Origin: Escherichia phage Ecwhy_1
Sequence record: MH791411.1
Strand: one strand, 5' to 3'
Length of the DNA: 64,000 nucleotides
Shown here: positions 1,554-61,543 of the stretch, piece by piece
Layout of the letters: the number at the start of each line of letters is the position of its first letter
How positions within the stretch are numbered: the first letter of the stretch is position 1
Program-made: the position numbers and the translations under genes
Notes under the pieces: model-generated
Seen by the model: only the letters and a program-made list of their open reading frames with translations
Told to the model about the DNA's origin: nothing
Database searches by the model: none

Positions 1554-4500
1554 ATGACTAATAATTTTAAGTTTCAACCTACACAGATGGCTGAAGCAGT
1601 ACAGAAGAAGCTTTTCATAAAAAGATTGCCTGAGTGGATGCAAGGCTTAGAAGATATTCAGAAAGTCAGTGATGATGTTATCCAACAATGGTTTAATCCG
1701 GCTGAAAACGAATTAGTTGACGGCTACATTGGTGACATGGGTTCTCCGGCAGCAGCAGGGAACATCTTCTTACACGAGTCAACAGTCGCACGTCAACTAT
1801 ATCAGTTGTCCACTGCGTATGTCTCAAGAAATGATGACTCCAGCATTCGTTCAATTCAATTTTATGATGATCTAGTTGGCTATATGAATCATTACGGTGC
1901 ACTAACCGAAAATGAAAGCCGTTTGTTTAATGGTAAGTTCTATTCATGGACCCCACCAATTAACCCAAATAAAATGAACAACTACAGTTCATACCTATGG
2001 GATTCCAAGAATAGCTATAATATCACAACTCCAGATTATATTGTAATGGAACGTGGTGCAGAAAATGGTAACACTTGGTCACTACAAAACTTCTGGTACA
2101 CATTAGGTGAAACTTTAGAAGATGGTACTATCCTAACTGAAGAACTAATGCAAGATTCCCGTTTTGTTCGTGCTCGTGCACCAATTATCGAATACAATAA
2201 AAATATCGAACTAATGAACTACGGTACTAAATTCCGTGGGACAGTTGATTTGTTCTCTGATATTATTAAACCTGAAGATATCGTACAAAAAGATATTAAC
2301 AGCGGTATACGTATTGATGGTATTATTCCACAAGATGGTATGCGTATTCTTTTCACCAGTATTGGTAACAATGGTGAAAACAACCGAATTTATAAAGTAT
2401 ATGTTAAACGTATGCAAGATGGAACACGTGTGTATGGTCTAGCATTAGATCCAGACGAAGAATCTGAAAGCCGTCCGAGTGGTGAACCACAAGATGGTGA
2501 CGTAGTTCTTATTATCAAAGGTAATGAATTTGGTAACAGTTCCATGTATTGGGACGGTTCTCATTGGATTCAAGCACAGTCTAAAACTTCTGTGAACGTA
2601 TTTCCACAATTCCAATTGTATGACCGTAATGGTGTTAAACTAAACAACACTACTACCTATCCATCAAGTACTTTTACTGGTTCTTCACTATTTGGTTTTA
2701 AAATTAACTATAATTATGCAACTGATAGCGTTTATGGTTATAATATTGAACTAGGTGATTACAATTATTACACATATGAGAATTTCCTACAATCAACTCG
2801 TTATACTTACGAGCATTTGGGTGTGGAAGTTGAAATTGATGGACTATATTACTATAACGTAATTGGTGAAGGTAATACAATGAACCTAGAAACTGATTGG
2901 GTTCGTAGTACTGAATACTCCAAACAATATGTTAAACAAACTCCACAGGTTGAACGTACAGTAATGTTCCGCGTGTTCAGTACTGTTTATGACATGGAAA
3001 GTTTCAAAGACCCAGTTGAAGGAATGTATGCTTATGTAATTGAAGTTGACAGAACTTATCAATATTACAAAGCAGAACGTGAAACATATCTTGATTGGCA
3101 TGTTATCGTTGGTGATGGGGTACAAAGCGTTAAGTACAATCATACATTTGAATTGGCACAAAAAGTACTAGATAATTCTGATGATATTATCGAACTAGTT
3201 GTTGATGGTGTGGAAATAAAAGAATACACCAAAACTGTAGTTAATAATCAAGTACAAAGTATTACAATTGATAGCTCTGTTGATTTGGATGAAGATTCTG
3301 TTGTACAAATCAGAACTTATAGTAGCACTATCACTCCTAATAAAGAGTTGGGTGCATATGAAGTTCCAATTAACCTACAAAATAACCCATATAATTCAAA
3401 CATTGAATACATCAACCAAGGTGATTACACCCTGCACTTCCAAGATATTATTCAAAAGAATATTACATCTGGTTCTGCTGATGACTTTAACAATTACGAA
3501 GAACGTTTGGCTGCTGGTTTGGTTAATAATGGTGTAGGCACTAAAATTATTCAAAACGAAGCGTCCATGTTACCACTAATGGCACATACCGCTAATGAAG
3601 ATATTGATTTGTTTGAATCAATCATGTTTATGCAAGCAGAATACTTCCGCTTCATTAACAAGTTCAACACTCAAATGCTTCGTTTGTATGAAGAAGACCC
3701 AAGTGCTTTTCTTGGTAATAGTGCATCAAACATCGTAGATGCGATTCTAACAGCTATTAATATGGGACGTGATAGTACATTCCCATTCTACTATGACAAC
3801 GTTGCAAGCACTGCTGGGTTTATTCGTGCATTTGTCCCACCAACTCCACAGTTCTTGGGTATTTTGCAAGCTTATACACCACAAAAAGCAACATTCTTAA
3901 CTGCTGGTAGTAAATCTAGCTGTTATAATATCAGTCATACTGGTATTATTTCAAAAGCATACCGTGTTATCAATGGTGTTGATAAAATGGATGACGTAGT
4001 TTTTGAATTGGAAAATCGTATCTTTAATAGTATTGATCTTACTTTCAAGGATATTGATTATAAACCAGTACTAAACAGTGAAGACCTATTCCCAACTCCA
4101 TATTTCACTGGTACTGATTATAGTGCAGAAGAAAAGAAAACTCTATTACTACGTGGTTACATTAACTTCACAGCAACCAATGGCATTAGTAACAGTACTC
4201 ATGATTATGATGCAAATAACTGGAGAACTTGGAACTATACTGGTAGTTATTATGTTGTTGATGGTCAACGTACTGAAATTCCTGCTCGTGGTTCATGGCG
4301 TGCAATCTATACTGACCAATATGGCACATATCGTCCAGCAACCCATCCGTGGGAAATGATGGGCTTCTCTCAACGTCCTACTTGGTGGAACCAAGAATAC
4401 GAACCAACCGCAGTTCAAGTTGGTGAACGTGAGGGTGATGTTGTTTATGTGTATGAAGCACTAGTAATGAATGAAAATGGTGATTTGGTCCCAAGTGGAT

Positions 4501-13943: not shown

Positions 13944-15452
13944 TTGGAGACAAACATGGCATATAGAATGTGGAAAAAAGGTAGAACCAATGATTACAAG
14001 TTCATTGACTCTGCCATAGCAGAACAATACAACATCGGTGGTGTTGACATGTGGCTTTATGCCTATGTCGGACCAAAACAAGTCGCTGATAACACTGATT
14101 TATCATACGGCGGTGATTATTATGGATCAGATAGTACCGTTGTGTCAAGCATTGGTGATTTAATTTTTGGTGACACTCCAAGTCGTAACTATAATCTCGA
14201 AGCTATCACCTTAAGTTGCGTCTACCAAGTCCAAGAAGCAACTCCTGACTTGAAAATCCCAGGATTGTTCTTCAACTTTAACACTATGGACATCACAATT
14301 CATTATAACACAATGATTCAGCGTTTGGGAAGAAAAATTATGCCAGGTGACGTAATCGAACTTCCTAACTTACGTGATTTTGATGTACTTGGTAAAGATT
14401 CTGGTTTAAACCGCTTCTATGTAGTACAAGATGGGTTTAGAACGTCAGAAGGTTACTCAGTTACATGGCAACATCACATTTACAAACTCCGTGTTAAACC
14501 TCTTACTGATTCACCAGAGTACTCTGACCTTCTAGGTAACAATAACTACCCTGATGACCCAGATGATCCAAACAACGGCAATGGTAATACTGATGATGGC
14601 TCTTCAGAGAACAGCAGCTATGGTAATGAAATGGATATTATGAACCGTATCATTATGCAAGCTGATGATGAAGTACCATACATTCATTTTACTAACGAAC
14701 ACTTGTTCGATGACAGACCAGATACTGTTGATTTGTCTAAGTATATGCTAAATGGATACGAATTACCAGAGGAACCAGCAAATAAAATGTATTTCCTCAA
14801 GAAAACTTACCCAGTACTGAAAGAACTATCTAATGATACATGGATTTCTGTAGAAGTCAAGCGTGGAACAATCTTTCCTCGCAAACCGATGGATGGTGAC
14901 TTCTTCTTTAAAGAAAACGAGGCTGATGTCACTGGCTTCTCATTGTATCAATACGATAAATCTGCCAAAAAGTGGCTAAATTGTGATGTTGAGTATACTA
15001 CAGAAAGCACACCACCACAAGGGGTTGATGATTTTTATATTGAATACAAAGAACCACACATTTATCAGTACTTAAATGGTAAATGGGGAGAACCAGAAGT
15101 AACTTACGTTAATGACCCATTCACTTCTAATAGTGTTTATGGAAATATCGATTCACAACAAGATTATCGTCCTAAGATTCCTCCAGCACGAGGTACAGTT
15201 CCTGAAGGTAATATGTTCCCAAGTGATGCAGTTGATGGTGATTACTACTATCGTACCGATTATACACCAGTAACCCTATGGGAATACAGTGCGTCCAAGA
15301 ATTCTTGGGTGATTTTCGATTACGGTGGTAGAAAACCGTGGGAAGGTGCAGATCTTGCTCTAACAGAATTTGTTAATAGCCCGAACCGTGTACCATTACA
15401 TGATGCAGTTAAACCTAATACAGCGTATCGTATACATAAGGATTCAGAATGA
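13944..15452 (+). CDS. Structural protein, putative tail fibre or receptor-binding component (hypothetical)
   Basis: RBS tTGGAGAcaaacATG. Asn/Asp/Gly-rich linker (NNYPDDPDDPNNGNGNTDDG). Repeated C-terminal modules carrying DGDFFFKEN and DGDYYYRTDY motifs that are also present in the giant ORF and the 654-aa fibre. ATGA-coupled to the next gene. Confidence 0.6.
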   Translation: METNMAYRMWKKGRTNDYKFIDSAIAEQYNIGGVDMWLYAYVGPKQVADNTDLSYGGDYYGSDSTVVSSIGDLIFGDTPSRNYNLEAITLSCVYQVQEATPDLKIPGLFFNFNTMDITIHYNTMIQRLGRKIMPGDVIELPNLRDFDVLGKDSGLNRFYVVQDGFRTSEGYSVTWQHHIYKLRVKPLTDSPEYSDLLGNNNYPDDPDDPNNGNGNTDDGSSENSSYGNEMDIMNRIIMQADDEVPYIHFTNEHLFDDRPDTVDLSKYMLNGYELPEEPANKMYFLKKTYPVLKELSNDTWISVEVKRGTIFPRKPMDGDFFFKENEADVTGFSLYQYDKSAKKWLNCDVEYTTESTPPQGVDDFYIEYKEPHIYQYLNGKWGEPEVTYVNDPFTSNSVYGNIDSQQDYRPKIPPARGTVPEGNMFPSDAVDGDYYYRTDYTPVTLWEYSASKNSWVIFDYGGRKPWEGADLALTEFVNSPNRVPLHDAVKPNTAYRIHKDSE

Positions 15453-16804: not shown

Positions 16805-17269
16805 ATGAATGAAGCAGTAGGTGCTATATTTTTATCTAAAAGTACTGGACACATGATGTTAAACTTGAGATCAGAAAGAAGTACGTATTCTAACAACTGG
16901 GCATTTGTTGGTGGGAAGCTTGAGTATAATGAAACTCCGTTACAGGGTCTTATGCGTGAGATTAAAGAAGAGCTAGGTGATTCTATTCCAACGATAATAG
17001 ATATTATACCATTTGATGTATTTTGTACGAAGAATGGTAAATTTAAATATTATTCATTTGTCATTGTAGTTGAAAATGAATTCGTACCTACTTTAAATCA
17101 TGAGAGTTCTGGTTATGCATGGGTTAAGATTGGCTCATGGCCCAAACCATTACATCCTGGTGCAAAAAACACATTACTCAACACAAATTTAATGAAGGAT
17201 TTCTATTCATTGTGGGAAAGTATACGACAAGGTACACAGTTTGTCAACAGCTTACCATATCGATATTAA
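16805..17269 (+). CDS. Nudix hydrolase
   Basis: Nudix box GGKLEYNETPLQGLMREIKEELGD matches GX5EX7REUXEEXGU. GGAGG-type RBS (aaggaggtgttgttATG). Followed by a bidirectional terminator. Confidence 0.75.
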   Translation: MNEAVGAIFLSKSTGHMMLNLRSERSTYSNNWAFVGGKLEYNETPLQGLMREIKEELGDSIPTIIDIIPFDVFCTKNGKFKYYSFVIVVENEFVPTLNHESSGYAWVKIGSWPKPLHPGAKNTLLNTNLMKDFYSLWESIRQGTQFVNSLPYRY

Positions 17270-17278
17270 TAAAAAAAA

Positions 17279-17307
17279 GGAGCCAATGGCTCCTTTTTTC
17301 TTTTTAT
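17279..17307. terminator. Bidirectional intrinsic terminator
   Basis: AAAAAAAA-ggagcc-aat-ggctcc-TTTTTTCTTTTT between the convergent Nudix gene (+) and the 366-aa gene (-). Confidence 0.75.
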
Positions 17308-55540: not shown

Positions 55541-55570
55541 TATAAAAAAAGACCCCATATAGGAGTCTTT
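55541..55570. terminator. Bidirectional terminator
   Basis: AAAAAAA-gacccc-atat-aggagtc-TTTTTTTT (imperfect stem) after the 263-aa gene. Confidence 0.55.
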
Positions 55571-55578
55571 TTTTTGTT

Positions 55579-56420: not shown

Positions 56421-56639
56421 TTATTTGGAATTATACAAGCAATACAAGTATACCATAGGAGCAAAATGTTCGGTATCAACTAAGTATATTAACTGGGTGT
56501 CATATATACCGTACAAATCTCGAAATTTATCTCTGTACAGCAACAATGACTTATTGTTGTGTGGGTCAACCCAGTACTTTAAGTCATTGTAGTGCAACGT
56601 GTTATTACGGTAACCTGATAATATTTGTTTTTTAGCCAA
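56421..56639 (-). CDS. Hypothetical protein (72 aa)
   Basis: ORF whose start overlaps the stop of the 125-aa gene by 8 nt. Confidence 0.4.
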   Translation of the reverse strand: MAKKQILSGYRNNTLHYNDLKYWVDPHNNKSLLLYRDKFRDLYGIYDTQLIYLVDTEHFAPMVYLYCLYNSK

Positions 56640-57009
56640 CTTTTTTACAATTACTTAGTAAATGCATGATGGCATCAGCGGTAAATGGTCCCAGTACTAA
56701 AACTTCTTCTCCATTACCGAAGATACTCAATGGTACAGATTGTTGTCCTGCTAGATATTCGATTTGTTCTAATTCGAAAATGTCATCAGCAGCATAAACA
56801 ACCTGTTCCATTTCATTATCTTTAATCCATGACTGCCAATGTTCTTTAAACTGCTTCGCTTCGTATTCCAGTACATAGTTAGGTGATTCTGGATTGTACT
56901 GATGTAGCATTGTCATACCAGCCATAACCAGTTCTTTTGGTGATGGAGTAGAATCTTTCAGTACTACGATAGCTTGGATAGTTTTAACTTTAACGTTTTG
57001 AGCAGCCAT
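56632..57009 (-). CDS. Hypothetical protein (125 aa); weak resemblance to Pth2-type peptidyl-tRNA hydrolase
   Basis: Segments KTIQAIVVLKDS… and …EEVLVLGPFTADAIMHLLSNCK resemble the start and the C-terminal …IGLGP…KITGKYKLL of Pth2 proteins. Judged by eye only. Confidence 0.3.
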   Translation of the reverse strand: MAAQNVKVKTIQAIVVLKDSTPSPKELVMAGMTMLHQYNPESPNYVLEYEAKQFKEHWQSWIKDNEMEQVVYAADDIFELEQIEYLAGQQSVPLSIFGNGEEVLVLGPFTADAIMHLLSNCKKVG

Positions 57010-57349: not shown

Positions 57350-57829
57350 TTATTTTAGAATGTATAAGTGTTTTTCTGCATTAACCAGTCTGTGGTCAAT
57401 GATTTCTTTGATAACGTTCCAGTTACCACCGCCTAAATCGGCTCCAATTTTCGGGAAGTGTACATGGATCTCTTGTGGTTCATTTTTAATGAATTCATTC
57501 ATCGAGTTAAATGCAAGGTCAATCGCATCATAACTTACATACTTCTTACCATCATTACCATAATACTCTTGTGTAATGCAGTTTGCAATAATTAAGTTAT
57601 TATTTGGTGCTGCATAGACAACTTCACCCAATTTCAAACCATTCTGATTGGTATAACGTGTATGATACACATCATATGCCAATTGGTGACGCTTTCTTAA
57701 TTCTTTTGCAAAACCAGAACCCATCTTACCCTGAGCGTTACAACCATGAGCGATAATATGTAATGCAGTTTGATCAGTAGTAACAGTACTGAATAAATCA
57801 AACAGATTACCACAATGTTCATGTATCAT
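57350..57829 (-). CDS. Macro-domain protein (ADP-ribose binding or processing)
   Basis: HIIAHGCNAQGKMGSGFAKEL matches the macro-domain core (…H.CN…G.MG.GIA…); about 160 aa is typical of a stand-alone macro domain. Confidence 0.6.
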   Translation of the reverse strand: MIHEHCGNLFDLFSTVTTDQTALHIIAHGCNAQGKMGSGFAKELRKRHQLAYDVYHTRYTNQNGLKLGEVVYAAPNNNLIIANCITQEYYGNDGKKYVSYDAIDLAFNSMNEFIKNEPQEIHVHFPKIGADLGGGNWNVIKEIIDHRLVNAEKHLYILK

Positions 57830-57848
57830 TATATTCTCCGAAAAGAAA

Positions 57849-57870
57849 GGACTCTGTAATCAGAGTCCTT
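57849..57870 (-). terminator. Rho-independent terminator (minus strand)
   Basis: aggactctg-taat-cagagtcct, 9-bp stem. The minus-strand T-rich run comes from + gaaaagaaag. Confidence 0.65.
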
Positions 57871-57880
57871 AATTTATATT

Positions 57881-58138
57881 TTATTCTTCTTCACCGAATC
57901 GAATTTTTTTCAATTCTTTTCGTTGTTTGCGAGCAATGGTACTTTTGTGAAGTCTATTACCACGTTTTGTGTCTTTCGTAATGTACCATGAATCTTCTGG
58001 TGCATTATAATCACAATAACCATCTTCTGTAATCGTCCCTAAGAAAGCAGACTTTTTAGGAATGGATGTTTGAGCTTTAGCAGCGAATTGGCCTTTTGCT
58101 AATTGTTCACGAAAACTGAGCATAATAGTATCTCCCAA
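57881..58138 (-). CDS. Hypothetical basic protein (85 aa)
   Basis: Lys/Arg-rich C-terminus. Confidence 0.45.
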   Translation of the reverse strand: MGDTIMLSFREQLAKGQFAAKAQTSIPKKSAFLGTITEDGYCDYNAPEDSWYITKDTKRGNRLHKSTIARKQRKELKKIRFGEEE

Positions 58139-58168
58139 ATTGTTACGAAGAACTTGTGTTCTTCATTA

Positions 58169-58411
58169 TTATTTAGGGTTGCTCGAAACCTCTACTGAAG
58201 CGATGAATGCCAAAATATCATCTTTACTGAAAGCTTCAATAATATAAGCAACCGCTTTATCGTACTGTTCTTTCTTAGTAGTGTATTCTTTCATTTTGTG
58301 AATTTTACGTTGTGCTTTAACTTTTGCAGCTTCCATATCAGGCATTTTAAATTCAACACCCAATGTGTCAGCTAAATGTTTTGCACGAGATGATACTTTA
58401 TCAATATTCAT
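58169..58411 (-). CDS. Hypothetical protein (80 aa)
   Basis: ORF whose stop overlaps the glutaredoxin gene start by 1 nt. Confidence 0.45.
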   Translation of the reverse strand: MNIDKVSSRAKHLADTLGVEFKMPDMEAAKVKAQRKIHKMKEYTTKKEQYDKAVAYIIEAFSKDDILAFIASVEVSSNPK

Positions 58412-58659
58412 TAATTCCAGCGACCTTCTTTAAGACCTTCAACGAAACCAGTACAGCCACCTGGAACGTAAACATCGTTTACGAAAATTTGTGGAACCTG
58501 TCGTACTGGCTCACCACATAGTTCAGATAGTTTAGCACCATCAATACCAGCGGTAACAATATCGATAAACTCCATATCAAATTTGTTATTTTCACATACT
58601 GCTTTAGCAGTGTCGCAGAATTTACAACCAGTAGTGCGACCATAAATTTTAACTTTCAT
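58411..58659 (-). CDS. nrdC: Glutaredoxin/NrdH-like thioredoxin-fold protein (T4 NrdC-like)
   Basis: MKVKIYGRTTGCKFCDTAK has the CxxC active site inside the beta-alpha-beta start of a thioredoxin fold. Overall size and layout resemble T4 NrdC (KVYGYDSNIHKCVYCDNAK). Confidence 0.7.
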   Translation of the reverse strand: MKVKIYGRTTGCKFCDTAKAVCENNKFDMEFIDIVTAGIDGAKLSELCGEPVRQVPQIFVNDVYVPGGCTGFVEGLKEGRWN

Positions 58660-59062
58660 TTCTTTTCCCTTTATTTCGTTGAAACATTGTAACAGCCTTT
58701 ATTATACTGTTACACATTCGTTCAGTCAAATACTTTTGACAATCTAGTACATCAATGTACATGAACTTATCCAATTCTGGGTGACTTCTACCATATCTGT
58801 TTGTGTAAGTACTTTTACACTCCAACTCTTCTGGTATAGGCTTATCTTTGGCTGTATAGAAAAATAAAACTAAACGTTTCCCCTTTCTATACGATACATC
58901 ACCAAGAAACAGAAGATCATCTTCATCGATTTCATATCCTGTCTCTTCGTAGCATTCACGTACAGCAGCCTCTTTAAATGTTTCTGTACCTTCAGTTTTA
59001 CCTTTAGGTAAGTCCCAGTGATTCTGTCCGTGTTGTATGCCCGATAAGTATCTGACCATCAC
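58649..59062 (-). CDS. Nudix hydrolase (second copy)
   Basis: Nudix box LPKGKTEGTETFKEAAVRECYEETGYEI (GX5EX7REUXEEXGU). Confidence 0.75.
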   Translation of the reverse strand: MMVRYLSGIQHGQNHWDLPKGKTEGTETFKEAAVRECYEETGYEIDEDDLLFLGDVSYRKGKRLVLFFYTAKDKPIPEELECKSTYTNRYGRSHPELDKFMYIDVLDCQKYLTERMCNSIIKAVTMFQRNKGKRNES

Positions 59063-59168
59063 GATAAAATATTATACCACAGCTATAACGCATAATCTTA
59101 TCTCTTTATCATCAAGTGATGTTCAGATACTAGTAATTATATCAGAAGATGTTAACTTGTCCCAGCTT

Positions 59169-60284
59169 TTAGAACATTTGCTTGATTGCTTCAATACGCA
59201 ATTCAGCAACAAAATCACGAATCTCCGATGTTTGGAGTTCACCATCTTTCACTAACTGCTGAATATCAGGTAATTCAACATCAGTATAACGATCATAAAC
59301 TTTAATAATCAAATCTTCAAGTTCAGAATCAATTTCTTTGTTCAAAATGAAGTTTTCCAGTACTTTGTAAAGGAAATCTTCACCACCATTGTTTTTGATA
59401 TTCATATCCAGTAAGATTTGTCCCATTTCAACTGGGGTCTTCTTACGGAAGGTTTTAATATCTTCACGGAAACGCTTGATGTAATTACTAAACTTAACGT
59501 ACTTAACTGGAACCTTAATGGAACCGTTAAGTACTGAATCATTATTTACTTCTTCATTTTCAAGAAGTACTGTCCATAAGAAATATGGTTTATATTCTTC
59601 TGTACAATTTGCAGCGATAGAATCAATTAATTCCAGACGTTTCTTGGTAACTGGAACTGTAGTAAATGCCTTTTCGTAATAACCAAATTGTACCAGAGTT
59701 TTGATAAACTTGGAAGGGTTTTCTTCAGAAAGTGCTTTTTCGAATTCAACAAAAACACGATCTGGAACTAGATGGTCTAGTTCACCAGTACTAACCATAT
59801 CTTTACACATTGTCATAGTATCATCATGGATTGTAAAGTCGGAGTAACGCGTAGCGAAACGGGCCAAACGTAGAACACGCAATGGATCTTCTTTAAAGTG
59901 TTCTGATACATGACGAAGTACTTTGTTCTTGATATCAGCTTTCCCGCCATAAGGGTCGATGTGAATCTGGAGTACTGGATCATATGCAATACTATTGATT
60001 GTGAGATCACGACGATATAGATCTTGTTCTAGTGTCACACCTTTTGTATTCACTTCGAAGCCACCATATCCAGTACCAGTTTTACGCTCAGTACGGGCTA
60101 ATGCGTGTTCATTACCTTCTGGACTTAGATATACAGGGAAATCCTTACCTACTTGCTTGTATCCAATACTTTGCAAGTATTTAATATCGGATTCGGTAGC
60201 ACCGACAATAACATAATCTTTGTCTTTTGCACGGATACCCATTAAACGGTCACGAACGTAGCCACCAACCAAATACTTTTTCAT
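59169..60284 (-). CDS. cca: CCA-adding tRNA nucleotidyltransferase (class II, head/neck/body only)
   Basis: MKKYLVGGYVRDRLMGIRAKDKDYV, GYKQVGKDFPVYLSPEGNEHALARTERKTGTGYGGF, RRDLTINSIAYD and EDPLRVLRLARFATRY are collinear with the E. coli CCA N-terminal half. No HD domain. Confidence 0.85.
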   Translation of the reverse strand: MKKYLVGGYVRDRLMGIRAKDKDYVIVGATESDIKYLQSIGYKQVGKDFPVYLSPEGNEHALARTERKTGTGYGGFEVNTKGVTLEQDLYRRDLTINSIAYDPVLQIHIDPYGGKADIKNKVLRHVSEHFKEDPLRVLRLARFATRYSDFTIHDDTMTMCKDMVSTGELDHLVPDRVFVEFEKALSEENPSKFIKTLVQFGYYEKAFTTVPVTKKRLELIDSIAANCTEEYKPYFLWTVLLENEEVNNDSVLNGSIKVPVKYVKFSNYIKRFREDIKTFRKKTPVEMGQILLDMNIKNNGGEDFLYKVLENFILNKEIDSELEDLIIKVYDRYTDVELPDIQQLVKDGELQTSEIRDFVAELRIEAIKQMF

Positions 60285-60285
60285 A

Positions 60286-60408
60286 TCATTCCCCCATCAA
60301 CCAATCACGTAGACGTTCCCAGAAGCCTTTTGGCTGATATTCTGGATATTCATATTCATCTGTTCCTTGCTCGGAAACACCCCAATCTTCTTCTAATACT
60401 GTAATCAC
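60286..60408 (-). CDS. Acidic micro-ORF A (40 aa), translationally coupled to cca
   Basis: Not in the ORF track (below its length cutoff). GGAGG-cattGTG start. Translation VITVLEEDWGVSEQGTDEYEYPEYQPKGFWERLRDWLMGE. Stop TGA lies 1 nt before the cca ATG. A paralog sits at 61418-61543. Confidence 0.4.
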   Translation of the reverse strand: MITVLEEDWGVSEQGTDEYEYPEYQPKGFWERLRDWLMGE

Positions 60409-60419
60409 AATGCCTCCAA

Positions 60420-60857
60420 TTAAATTAATCTATCACGTAGACGGTCGTAATATTTTGCATGTATATCTAGTATACACTGAAATGATGGATAGTCAATACT
60501 AAATGTATCATCAATGAACATGTACTGAAGAAGTGTTTCTGGTCCATTATCAACAACTGGTAATGTCCCTTCTTTTTTTGATAGGGTGTGCCACATCAAC
60601 TCACTTTCAATATGGTGAGTTGCGTATGTCAATTCAATCTTACTTTTTCGTAGTAAAATTAACAATTCATCATTGTCATCGAGTGCATTACGAAATTTAA
60701 TACGAACTGTACCCTGGAAATTATTAGTGTACATAACACGATGATGATTGTATGAAATTAAACCACGTCTTTCAGTACTGATTTCATGTTCAGCAAAGTA
60801 CTTTAACGTTTCATTAAATTTTGGAATTTTACTTGCGTCCACCAATGTAATCCTCAT
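60420..60857 (-). CDS. Hypothetical protein (about 145 aa), paralog of the adjacent 137-aa protein
   Basis: Shares the motif LLQYMFIDDTFSIDY with YLQYQFIDDTFGFDF in the adjacent 137-aa gene. Confidence 0.5.
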   Translation of the reverse strand: MRITLVDASKIPKFNETLKYFAEHEISTERRGLISYNHHRVMYTNNFQGTVRIKFRNALDDNDELLILLRKSKIELTYATHHIESELMWHTLSKKEGTLPVVDNGPETLLQYMFIDDTFSIDYPSFQCILDIHAKYYDRLRDRLI

Positions 60858-61242
60858 ATACATGATATACGTTCATTATACTATTATATAGTTCAAAGTC
60901 AAATCCAAATGTGTCATCAATGAACTGGTATTGCAGATATTCTTCATATGAAGCATCAATTGGTAATGATCCAGCACGAATATCATCTGATTTAAAATCG
61001 TCAATGTATCTTAATGTTATGTCTTCATCAACAGTAATATCTATCATCAACGTATCGTCACTGTACCAAAGGTTATGTATACGGATGTAAAGTTTCTTAG
61101 CACGATTAAAACTAGATACATTGGTATTGCGATGGAGTTTATCTAAGTTGAAGTAAAAACCAGGCTCGTTTTTACTTATGTTTTTCATATGTTCTGCAAT
61201 CGAATCAATTATATAATCAATGTTGAATGTTCTCATAAACAA
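60829..61242 (-). CDS. Hypothetical protein (137 aa), paralog of the adjacent 145-aa protein
   Basis: Tandem duplicate. Its 3' end overlaps the start of the next gene by about 29 nt. Confidence 0.5.
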   Translation of the reverse strand: MFMRTFNIDYIIDSIAEHMKNISKNEPGFYFNLDKLHRNTNVSSFNRAKKLYIRIHNLWYSDDTLMIDITVDEDITLRYIDDFKSDDIRAGSLPIDASYEEYLQYQFIDDTFGFDFELYNSIMNVYHVYEDYIGGRK

Positions 61243-61418
61243 ATCTCATAGCGGTTTGTGTTTGGATTGTAGCAATAGGTATCATTAATTTTAACACCAG
61301 GTTTAAGTGTTATTGTTGTTCCTACTTCAGTACTGGGTTCTGCATCACAATAAATCATCACACCAACGCCACAGATTAAAGCTAAGATACAAATAATAGC
61401 ACATATTGTATATTCCAT
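61233..61418 (-). CDS. Small single-pass membrane protein (61 aa)
   Basis: MEYTICAIICILALICGVGVMIYCDAEP…: one hydrophobic helix followed by a Cys-containing soluble tail. SD gatGGGGGAGtgATG. The ORF-track start is a TTG 6 codons upstream. Confidence 0.45.
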   Translation of the reverse strand: MEYTICAIICILALICGVGVMIYCDAEPSTEVGTTITLKPGVKINDTYCYNPNTNRYEICL

Positions 61419-61543
61419 CACTCCCCCATCAGCCAATCAAAGAGACGTTCCAAGAAGCCATTAGGCTTGTATTCTGGTTCTTTGTTCACGTCGGTTTCTT
61501 GTTCATAAACACCCAAATCTTCTTCAAGTATAATTGTATTCAT
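61418..61543 (-). CDS. Acidic micro-ORF B (41 aa), paralog of micro-ORF A
   Basis: Not in the ORF track (below its length cutoff). MNTIILEEDLGVYEQETDVNKEPEYKPNGFLERLFDWLMGE. Its ATG overlaps the upstream TAA by 1 nt and its TGA overlaps the downstream ATG by 1 nt. Confidence 0.4.
   Translation of the reverse strand: MNTIILEEDLGVYEQETDVNKEPEYKPNGFLERLFDWLMGE

Follow-up and report, generated by a model that had tools for sequence, protein, structure and literature searches.

Macrodomain and Nudix genes of Escherichia phage Ecwhy_1: probably separate accessory genes, one of them divided between two reading frames

Escherichia phage Ecwhy_1 (MH791411.1) encodes a stand-alone macrodomain protein, two Nudix hydrolases (here Nudix-1 and Nudix-2) and a glutaredoxin within the 64,000-nt stretch analyzed here, which we call the window and number from its first letter (Table 1). 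An earlier note on the window, made from the letters alone, had recognized the same four genes at the same coordinates, and its assignment of one macro and two Nudix domains was borne out by profile and fold searches against the PDB and by Pfam searches. The region shares 99.8% identity with Escherichia phage Turkey3, 95 to 97% with several other coliphages, and about 84% with 121Q and PBECO4; together these phages are Asteriusviruses (121Q/PBECO4-like), which are jumbo myoviruses with genomes of 350 to 385 kb. We lean toward reading the macro gene, Nudix-1, and Nudix-2 as three separate accessory genes rather than parts of one pathway: the macro protein for removal of ADP-ribose added by DarT2, Nudix-1 as a frameshifted enzyme of the NudE.1 type that is tied to the glutaredoxin, and Nudix-2 as a further hydrolase.

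Table 1. Positions of the genes and features discussed in the text (aa, amino acids; ORF, open reading frame)
Feature	Position	Strand	Description
Nudix-2	16805..17269	plus	154 aa; Pfam NUDIX 56.7 bits (cut-off 21.1); phrog_1198; MutT/NudI/RppH-like
Terminator-like hairpin	17273..17299	plus	12-bp stem, A-run before and T-run after; behind Nudix-2, between convergent genes
Terminator-like hairpin	55544-55574	minus	Behind the neck gene
Macro gene	57350..57829	minus	Stand-alone macrodomain, 159 aa; assigned to the SCO6735/BT1257 subclass within the ALC1-like class; homologous to T4 Tk.4 (AdfM)
Mosaic (allele-swapped) 5′ tract of macro gene	57460..57829	minus	Drop in identity to vB_Ec-M-J and BF17
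Terminator-like hairpin	57847..57870	both	10-bp GC-rich stem and T-tract; between orf85 and the macro gene
orf85	57881-58138	minus	Small ORF between glutaredoxin and macro genes; phrog_15319, no known function
orf80	58169-58411	minus	Small ORF between glutaredoxin and macro genes; phrog_34640, no known function
Glutaredoxin	58411..58659	minus	82 aa; Pfam Glutaredoxin 35.7 bits; GrxA/T4 NrdC-like, CKFC active site
Nudix-1 ORF	58649-59062	minus	137 aa; Pfam NUDIX 45.8 bits (cut-off 21.1)
Nudix-1 downstream frame	58649..59029	minus	GQNHWDLPKGK to stop
Putative +1 frameshift site	59027..59036	minus	ACA(59036-59034)-ACA(59033-59031)-C(59030)-GGA(59029-59027); 0-frame codon CGG
Nudix-1 upstream frame	59031..59093	minus	Encodes MRYSCGIIFYRDGQILIGHTT, the canonical N-terminus with the first beta-strands of the Nudix fold
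CCA-adding tRNA nucleotidyltransferase	59169..60284	minus	Pfam PolyA_pol 69 bits and PolyA_pol_RNAbd, annotation of relatives; upstream neighbor of Nudix-1

Nudix-1, its two reading frames, and the adjoining glutaredoxin

Nudix-1 carries a canonical Nudix box, GKTEGTETFKEAAVRECYEETGY, as does Nudix-2, GKLEYNETPLQGLMREIKEELGD, and both proteins fit the pattern GX5EX7REUXEEXGU and score above the Pfam NUDIX cut-off. Nudix-1 matched phrog_1185 at 1e-45, and its close family of 43 clusters is confined to Rak2-like jumbo phages. An intact relative from that family, P0125, was 40% identical to T4 NudE over 124 amino acids (E = 1e-20), and tblastn matches of Nudix-1 in T4-like phages fell on annotated nudE genes. 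By these matches Nudix-1 is the predicted counterpart of T4 NudE.1; a fold search did not narrow the specificity further. T4 NudE.1 hydrolyzes ADP-ribose, Ap3A, FAD, and NAD (nicotinamide adenine dinucleotide) in vitro and decaps NAD-RNA, and its catalytic mutant shows delayed lysis with unchanged bulk NAD and NAD-cap levels. Nudix-1 would likewise be a pyrophosphatase for ADP-ribose, NAD, FAD, and Ap3A and a decapping enzyme for NAD-RNA. The earlier note had suggested hydrolysis of ADP-ribose and decapping of NAD-RNA as Nudix activities, which is reasonable for Nudix-1 given the T4 homology, and had allowed that Nudix proteins dedicated to sanitation of deoxynucleoside triphosphates would speak against its proposal; as a NudE.1 homologue, Nudix-1 does not fall in that category.

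The 137-amino-acid Nudix-1 ORF covers only the downstream frame of a gene that is split by a frameshift, and the N-terminus of the protein is encoded in another frame from an ATG at 59093. The ATG is preceded by an AAGAG Shine-Dalgarno-like element, and the upstream frame that it opens meets a CGG codon and ends nine codons later. At the junction the sequence reads CAT ACA ACA C GGA CAG, the remainder of Nudix-1 lies in the +1 frame, and the predicted junction peptide of the joined protein is DGQILIGHTTGQNHWDLPK. The same junction was found without the extra C at 19 Rak2-like loci of other genera, where the gene is uninterrupted. Moreover, when the conceptually joined protein of 147 amino acids was used as a tblastn query, all Asteriusvirus records (34/34) matched as two pieces spanning 3n+1 nt, and 25 records of other genera matched in a single piece. 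These counts across genomes come from tblastn and not from a pattern scan of IMG/VR for the shift site, in which 121Q was the sole match. Asteriusvirus Nudix-1 therefore lacks the uninterrupted ORF that otherwise marks the T4 NudE.1 clade. None of the database annotations marks the frameshift, and all start the gene at GTG 59062.

One explanation of the divided gene is that Nudix-1 is not recoded at all, and is either dead or yields only an N-terminally truncated protein from the GTG or ATG at 59062/59059, without the first beta-strand. GTG 59062 does open the longest uninterrupted Nudix-1 ORF, as the annotations have it, and the P-site ACA has no means of re-pairing after a +1 shift, unlike typical +1 sites of the slippage type. 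A pseudogene was rejected, as the ratio of nonsynonymous to synonymous substitution rates (dN/dS) of the downstream frame since the shift arose is 0.09 (between two Asteriusvirus lineages, against 121Q). Against truncation, the internal start has no Shine-Dalgarno element such as precedes ATG 59093, and the segment that would be lost forms strand E2-8 in a confident model of the intact relative. The upstream frame is also intact in eight Asteriusvirus genomes, with its N-terminus MRYSCGIIFYRDGQILIGHTT either identical or changed from I to V. Variable sites before the shift are synonymous or I-to-V in the upstream frame but would be G-to-D/V and S-to-L in the downstream frame, and after the shift the pattern is reversed, with constraint on the downstream frame; the constraint on the upstream frame is read from only four variable sites. 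We regard the absence of recoding as possible, if somewhat doubtful.

A further point against that explanation is the identity of the 0-frame codon at the shift site. CGG (Arg) was found at none of the 18,579 in-frame codons of long ORFs (window ORFs of at least 200 amino acids), whereas out of frame these ORFs contain the trinucleotide 193 times, and ACA, the P-site codon, is frequent in the window phage (28.5 per 1000). The site looks like a "hungry-codon" +1 programmed frameshift that has become fixed in the genus, and full-length Nudix-1 would need a +1 ribosomal frameshift at ACA-CGG-A. We tentatively propose, at somewhat short of an even chance, that every Asteriusvirus makes Nudix-1 by programmed +1 frameshifting at ACA-CGG-A, that the gene thereby acts as a sensor of tRNA-Arg(CCG) availability or of translational stress, and that the enzyme may be redox coupled to the glutaredoxin. 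If so, synthesis of the full-length enzyme depends on the slowness of the host in decoding CGG. A search of the window for tRNA genes, as candidates for a quadruplet decoder, found none. The close relative fEgEco12 carries a tandem pair of genes for tRNA-Thr(UGU), the anticodon of which reads ACA (PP777464, about 294,987-295,140; 3988-4141 in locus L096), and both look standard by ARAGORN, with a 7-nt anticodon loop.

The glutaredoxin ORF overlaps the Nudix-1 stop by 11 nt, and the two genes are adjacent at 20/20 Rak2-like loci (19 from IMG/VR, among them 121Q, which was fetched twice). In uncultured relatives, represented by six protein clusters, the pair is fused into a single Nudix-Grx protein of 226 to 227 amino acids; three independent metagenomic contigs that share the synteny (L093 to L095, 3501-4184) confirmed the fusion. 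Fusion was not seen among the IMG/VR loci, as 19/19 keep separate genes. Within the Nudix-1 family C82 is invariant and C37 and C117 occur in at least 90% of members, and T4 NudE also has C37 and C82. The conserved cysteines beside a glutaredoxin hint at redox control. We conclude, from the overlap, the constant adjacency, and the fusion in relatives, that Nudix-1 is tied to the glutaredoxin and not to the macro gene.

The macrodomain protein and its likely substrate

The macro ORF contains HGCNAQGKMGSGFAKEL. A phmmer search of the PDB with the macro protein returned BT1257 at 1e-15 and SCO6735 at 2e-10, and a profile built from 34 sequences of its family reached Poa1p, DarG, and TARG1 at 1e-11 to 1e-15. 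Structural and sequence matches rank BT1257 and SCO6735 first, followed by Poa1p, DarG, and TARG1, with viral, MacroD, and PARG types far lower, and this ranking places the protein in the ALC1-like class. The three-layer alpha/beta/alpha macro fold is present. The earlier note had said that absence of the Gly-rich phosphate-binding loop would count against the assignment; both loops are present, as G34-K-M-G-S-G39 and P126-K-I-G129-A-D-L-G133-G-G, and both are conserved. In the loops HGCN..G.MGSG and PKIG..LGGG, residues G34, G39, P126, and G129 are invariant and G134 and G135 are at least 90% conserved among 34 relatives, and a 10-sequence alignment that includes T4 Tk.4 and PhiKZ gp104 shows conservation of at least 90% at G37 and G133. 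Judged by sequence and fold together, the protein is unambiguously a macrodomain, and is confidently placed in the ALC1-like class.

The residues at the predicted active site point to a particular subclass. N31 and Q87 are invariant in the 34 relatives and align with Asn27 and Gln85 of SCO6735, mutation of either of which abolishes or nearly abolishes hydrolysis of thymidine-ADP-ribose DNA (PMC9411070). Catalysis of the TARG1/DarG type depends on a Lys (K84 in TARG1, K80 in DarG) and, in TARG1, on Asp125; the macro protein has Gln87 and Gly133 at these positions, with the equivalence taken from PMC9411070. The features of the SCO6735/BT1257 subclass, namely Gln for the catalytic Lys, a positioning Asn, and an extended mobile loop, are all present, and the mobile loop is within one residue of the length of that of SCO6735. 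By the SCO6735 scheme, Asn31 would position Gln87 on the distal ribose for attack by a backbone-held water, and the two Gly-rich loops would hold the diphosphate.

The macro protein belongs to phrog_335 (annotated "phosphatase"), and T4 Tk.4 falls in the same PHROG at 1e-65. By tblastn, macro proteins of the phrog_335 type occur in 2,466 of 50,697 phage records, including T4-like, rV5-like, Felix O1-like, Pakpunavirus, and other phages. Direct comparison with T4 Tk.4 gave a BLASTP E value of 1e-13 and an hhalign probability of 99.4% (E = 4e-21), with the N..TQ motif in register. In a 2025 transposon screen tk.4 was named adfM, and its loss sensitized T4 specifically to DarTG2 (bioRxiv 10.1101/2025.11.20.689424). 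PhiKZ gp104, a phage macrodomain that is less closely related, also bears the name AdfM and strips DarT2-added ADP-ribose from DNA in vitro (PMC13309987). The window protein shares with AdfM the homology to Tk.4 and an architecture of one 159-amino-acid domain without a DarT-binding domain. From homology at about 30% identity and the conserved catalytic residues, its most likely function would be reversal of DarT2-type thymidine ADP-ribosylation on phage DNA. The protein would bind ADP-ribosylated single-stranded phage DNA as an ADP-ribosyl glycohydrolase and cleave the ADP-ribose attached to thymidine by host DarT2-type toxins, and replication would thereby be restored in hosts that carry DarTG2. 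The earlier proposal of counterimmunity by NAD- and ADP-ribose-processing enzymes is thus partly supported and likely for the macro protein, by its membership of phrog_335 with T4 Tk.4, with DarTG2 modification of DNA as the probable target, but nothing was found that ties the genes to Thoeris, DSR, or NAD depletion.

Several points weigh against so specific an assignment. PF01661 (Macro) scored 17.9 bits on the macro ORF, under its gathering cut-off of 22, such that assignment to the superfamily depends on PDB profile matches and on the fold, and PF01661 matches are present in many homologues. Identity to T4 Tk.4 is just 28 to 32%, and the tk.4 result comes from one preprint, without biochemistry on Tk.4. 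Poa1p, an Appr-1′′-p phosphatase, is nearly as close structurally, and sequence cannot fix the substrate. The gene stands by translation- and tRNA-related genes (a CCA-adding enzyme and HPF) and upstream of a neck gene, in no obvious antidefense island. Finally, SCO6735 also removes protein-linked ADP-ribose (PMC9411070).

One alternative that builds on these points is that proteins or RNA, and not DNA, are the targets from which the macro protein removes ADP-ribose, whether added by CmdTAC-like defenses that ADP-ribosylate mRNA or by ADP-ribosyltransferases during infection. TARG1, like SCO6735, acts on protein-linked ADP-ribose, defense by RNA ADP-ribosylation is known, with phage erasers suggested as possible counters (PMC11825919), and the translation-related surroundings would suit such a target. 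The T4 family member, however, scored as a single, specific hit on DarTG2, and the mobile loop of the window protein has the SCO6735 length and carries Lys95 and Lys96; in SCO6735 that loop favors DNA binding. We consider a protein or RNA target unlikely.

The macro gene also differs from its surroundings in how it has diverged. Compared with vB_Ec-M-J, BF17, and CMSTMSU, it is 77% identical at the nucleotide level, and the flanking genes are 98 to 100% identical. The divergent tract is the 5′ 370 nt, which begins at the start codon and reaches about nt 57460; identity to vB_Ec-M-J and BF17 in this tract is 40 to 90%, with sub-blocks at 40 to 55%. The remaining 110 nt at the 3′ end of the gene and the intergenic flanks on either side match those two phages at 100%. 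The window allele was found otherwise in Turkey3 only. The dN/dS of the macro gene is 0.30 to 0.36, compared with 0.03 to 0.10 in most neighbors (0.22 in orf105 and 0.19 in orf80). We conclude that the divergence is an allele replacement by recombination within an otherwise clonal background. The swap fits an arms-race locus or host-driven diversification.

Relationship of the macro and Nudix genes and their surroundings

The earlier note had treated the macro and Nudix genes as a functional combination, and joint processing of ADP-ribose derivatives by phage Macro and Nudix proteins was also proposed by Iyer et al. 2022 (PMC9503650). In that model the substrates of the two enzymes would be soluble molecules derived from NAD (gcADPR or His-ADPR of Thoeris, ADP-ribose-1′′-phosphate, or free ADP-ribose from NADase effectors such as DSR/SIR2), with the macro protein opening or trimming the signal and the Nudix protein splitting the diphosphate, so that immunity by signaling or NAD depletion would be blunted. 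The distance given in the note, 0.8 kb, is correct (820 nt from macro start to Nudix-1 stop), and the order CCA-Nudix-Grx-...-macro is kept at 20/20 loci in all Rak2-like genera sampled, with protein identities of 45 to 80%. This synteny of macro, Nudix, and glutaredoxin genes across several genera is weakly compatible with a shared role. In addition, the macro protein would release free ADP-ribose, on which a NudE.1-type enzyme could act, since T4 NudE.1 hydrolyzes both ADP-ribose and NAD.

Other observations argue against joint action. A terminator-like hairpin stands between the macro and Nudix-1 genes, and no macro gene was found within 4 kb of Nudix-1 homologues at any of 59 phage loci outside the Rak2-like clade (0/59). 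Independent recurrence of the linkage was accordingly rejected, as it was seen inside that clade only. In T4, about 6 kb separates the homologues of the two genes, and mutants in them differ in phenotype. The nearest characterized relatives of the macro protein act on macromolecular ADP-ribose, on DNA or protein, and not on cyclic signals, and inactivation of T4 NudE.1 left NAD pools as they were. The counters to Thoeris and NAD depletion described in PMC13464706 are the NAD+ reconstitution pathways NARP1 to NARP3, and a Pfam scan of the proteins at 54.5 to 61.2 kb, including 10 neighbors, found no NARP-type NAD+ salvage or reconstitution domain. Joint Macro-Nudix processing is possible but gains no support from this analysis, and for the genes of the window we think it quite improbable. 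We conclude from the intervening hairpin, the lack of linkage outside the clade, the distance in T4, and the unrelated phenotypes that the macro and Nudix genes are independent and share a neighborhood by descent.

Least probable is that the macro protein is a Poa1p-like ADP-ribose-1′′-phosphate phosphatase that clears by-products of NAD-dependent RNA or tRNA repair (of the KptA/Tpt1 or sirtuin type): legacy annotations do read "Appr-1-p processing / phosphatase," with a CCA-adding enzyme 1.3 kb off and HPF in the region, but a Pfam scan of the local neighborhood found no KptA/Tpt1, 2H phosphoesterase, or RNA ligase domain in 10 flanking proteins, BT1257 and SCO6735 are nearest in sequence, the catalytic Asn/Gln pair is that of SCO6735, and the sole genetic phenotype known for the phage macro family is DarTG2 counterdefense.

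The genes of the region run on the minus strand in the order CCA-adding tRNA nucleotidyltransferase, Nudix-1, glutaredoxin, orf80, orf85, hairpin, and macro gene, followed by orf105, orf125, orf72, the gene for a gp13-like neck protein, a second hairpin, orf92, a deoxynucleoside monophosphate kinase gene, and the tail sheath gene. The first hairpin divides a CCA-Nudix-Grx-orf80-orf85 block from a macro-orf105-orf125-orf72-neck block, and the three hairpins of Table 1 are all strong and lie at unit edges. The gene orf85 keeps its syntenic position at every Rak2-like locus. RefSeq labels three of the genes in 121Q, as "macro domain-containing protein (Appr-1-p processing)," "glutaredoxin," and "nudix hydrolase (NudE)." The label "peptidyl-tRNA hydrolase" given to orf125 (56632-57009) in Turkey3 and the label "methylamine utilization" given to orf105 in vB_Ec-M-J were not confirmed by Pfam, NCBIfam, or PDB sequence searches. 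Translation-related accessory genes nearby are that for the CCA-adding enzyme and one for an HPF/RaiA ribosome hibernation factor at about 62.36 to 62.69 kb on the minus strand; the latter position is carried over from the annotations of Turkey3 and 121Q, and a Pfam Ribosomal_S30AE domain was found in relatives. A second island of divergence lies at orf147 (60420-60863, minus strand), which is about 80% identical to vB_Ec-M-J and CMSTMSU, compared with 99 to 100% for most neighbors. The stretch 60286-61543 (minus strand) resembles a tandem duplication of a two-gene module, in which ORFs of 40 and 41 amino acids (60286-60408 and 61418-61543) are clearly paralogous and orf147 and orf137 have the motif ...LQY.FIDDTF..D in common.

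Nudix-2 lies apart from this region. The earlier note had placed it at 16.8 kb in the structural region, flanked by terminators. The location among structural genes was confirmed, with a T4 gp15-like tail sheath stabilizer gene 12 nt upstream and homologues of 121Q "structural proteins" downstream, but a hairpin follows Nudix-2 on the downstream side only, and the closest one upstream (15292-15311) precedes the tail gene. Late coexpression with the tail gene is likely, given the 12-nt gap and the downstream hairpin, and the two genes would be cotranscribed. Conservation of Nudix-2 extends over Rak2-like, PA5oct-like, and other jumbo phages. Its top PDB and NCBIfam matches were BdRppH, NudI, MutT, and the Nudix domain of Dcp2, and it scored 35.7 and 34.4 bits against the NCBIfam MutT equivalogs (cut-offs of 148 and 97.9) and 32.5 against that of NudI (cut-off of 95). 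Nudix-2 is thus predicted to be a MutT/NudI/RppH-like hydrolase, for which a sanitizing role like that of MutT is possible, and these scores assign it no specificity.

As a finding, the presence of macro and Nudix genes is ordinary. Phages are known to carry both as accessory genes, with a Macro domain in about 56% of jumbo phages and a Nudix domain in about 45% (PMC9503650); the genes of 121Q are already labeled, and the T4 counterparts have been characterized. Of greater importance than the macro allele swap or the coupling of Nudix-1 to the glutaredoxin is the +1 frameshift, present throughout the genus at a codon that otherwise goes unused. The frameshift and the coupling provide testable hypotheses on how a phage enzyme of NAD and ADP-ribose metabolism is regulated. 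The macro gene is a candidate host range determinant, as it is a likely DarTG2 counterdefense gene whose allele differs between otherwise identical phages, and is worth genotyping; Asteriusviruses have been proposed for therapy against avian pathogenic (APEC), uropathogenic (UPEC), and O157 Escherichia coli.

Comparison with known enzymes

The closest phage system with a phenotype is T4 Tk.4, which like the window macro protein is a stand-alone phage macrodomain of about 155 to 160 amino acids, and the two share the motifs HGCN, N..TQ, and P[KR]IGAG.G.GNW. They differ in the loop after the TQ motif, which is four residues longer in the window protein and there matches that of SCO6735 in length, and in gene context, as T4 tk.4 lies between tk and vs. 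SCO6735 (PDB 5E3B) and BT1257 (PDB 2FG1/2AFC) are the top sequence and structure matches, at about 29% identity, and like the window protein have Gln in place of the TARG1/DarG Lys, keep its positioning Asn, and have a long mobile loop. SCO6735 cleaves thymidine-linked ADP-ribose from DNA (PMC9411070). Lys34 and Lys89 of SCO6735, which position the DNA, correspond to Ser38 and Gly91 in the window protein, with Lys35, Lys42, Lys95, and Lys96 nearby, and SCO6735 is an SOS-type chromosomal gene product rather than a phage protein. PhiKZ gp104 and the DarG2 macrodomain likewise remove DarT2-added ADP-ribose from DNA and belong to the ALC1-like class, but gp104 and the window protein share only 19% identity, and the catalytic Lys of PhiKZ AdfM and DarG (PTK) is replaced by Gln (ITQ) in the window protein. 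PhiKZ AdfM is also imported into the phage nucleus, and Asteriusviruses are not chimalliviruses.

The Nudix-1 family and T4 NudE.1 are small single-domain enzymes with a common Nudix box, WD[LI]PKG...REC.EETG, and a conserved Cys in C.S.[YF]. Unlike T4 NudE.1, Nudix-1 of the Asteriusviruses is split by the +1 frameshift; moreover, Nudix-1 always adjoins, and is sometimes fused to, a glutaredoxin, whereas T4 nudE lies beside a lysozyme gene. Nudix-2 has the canonical Nudix box of MutT, NudI, BdRppH, and the Dcp2 Nudix domain, with scores that all fall far under the family cut-offs.

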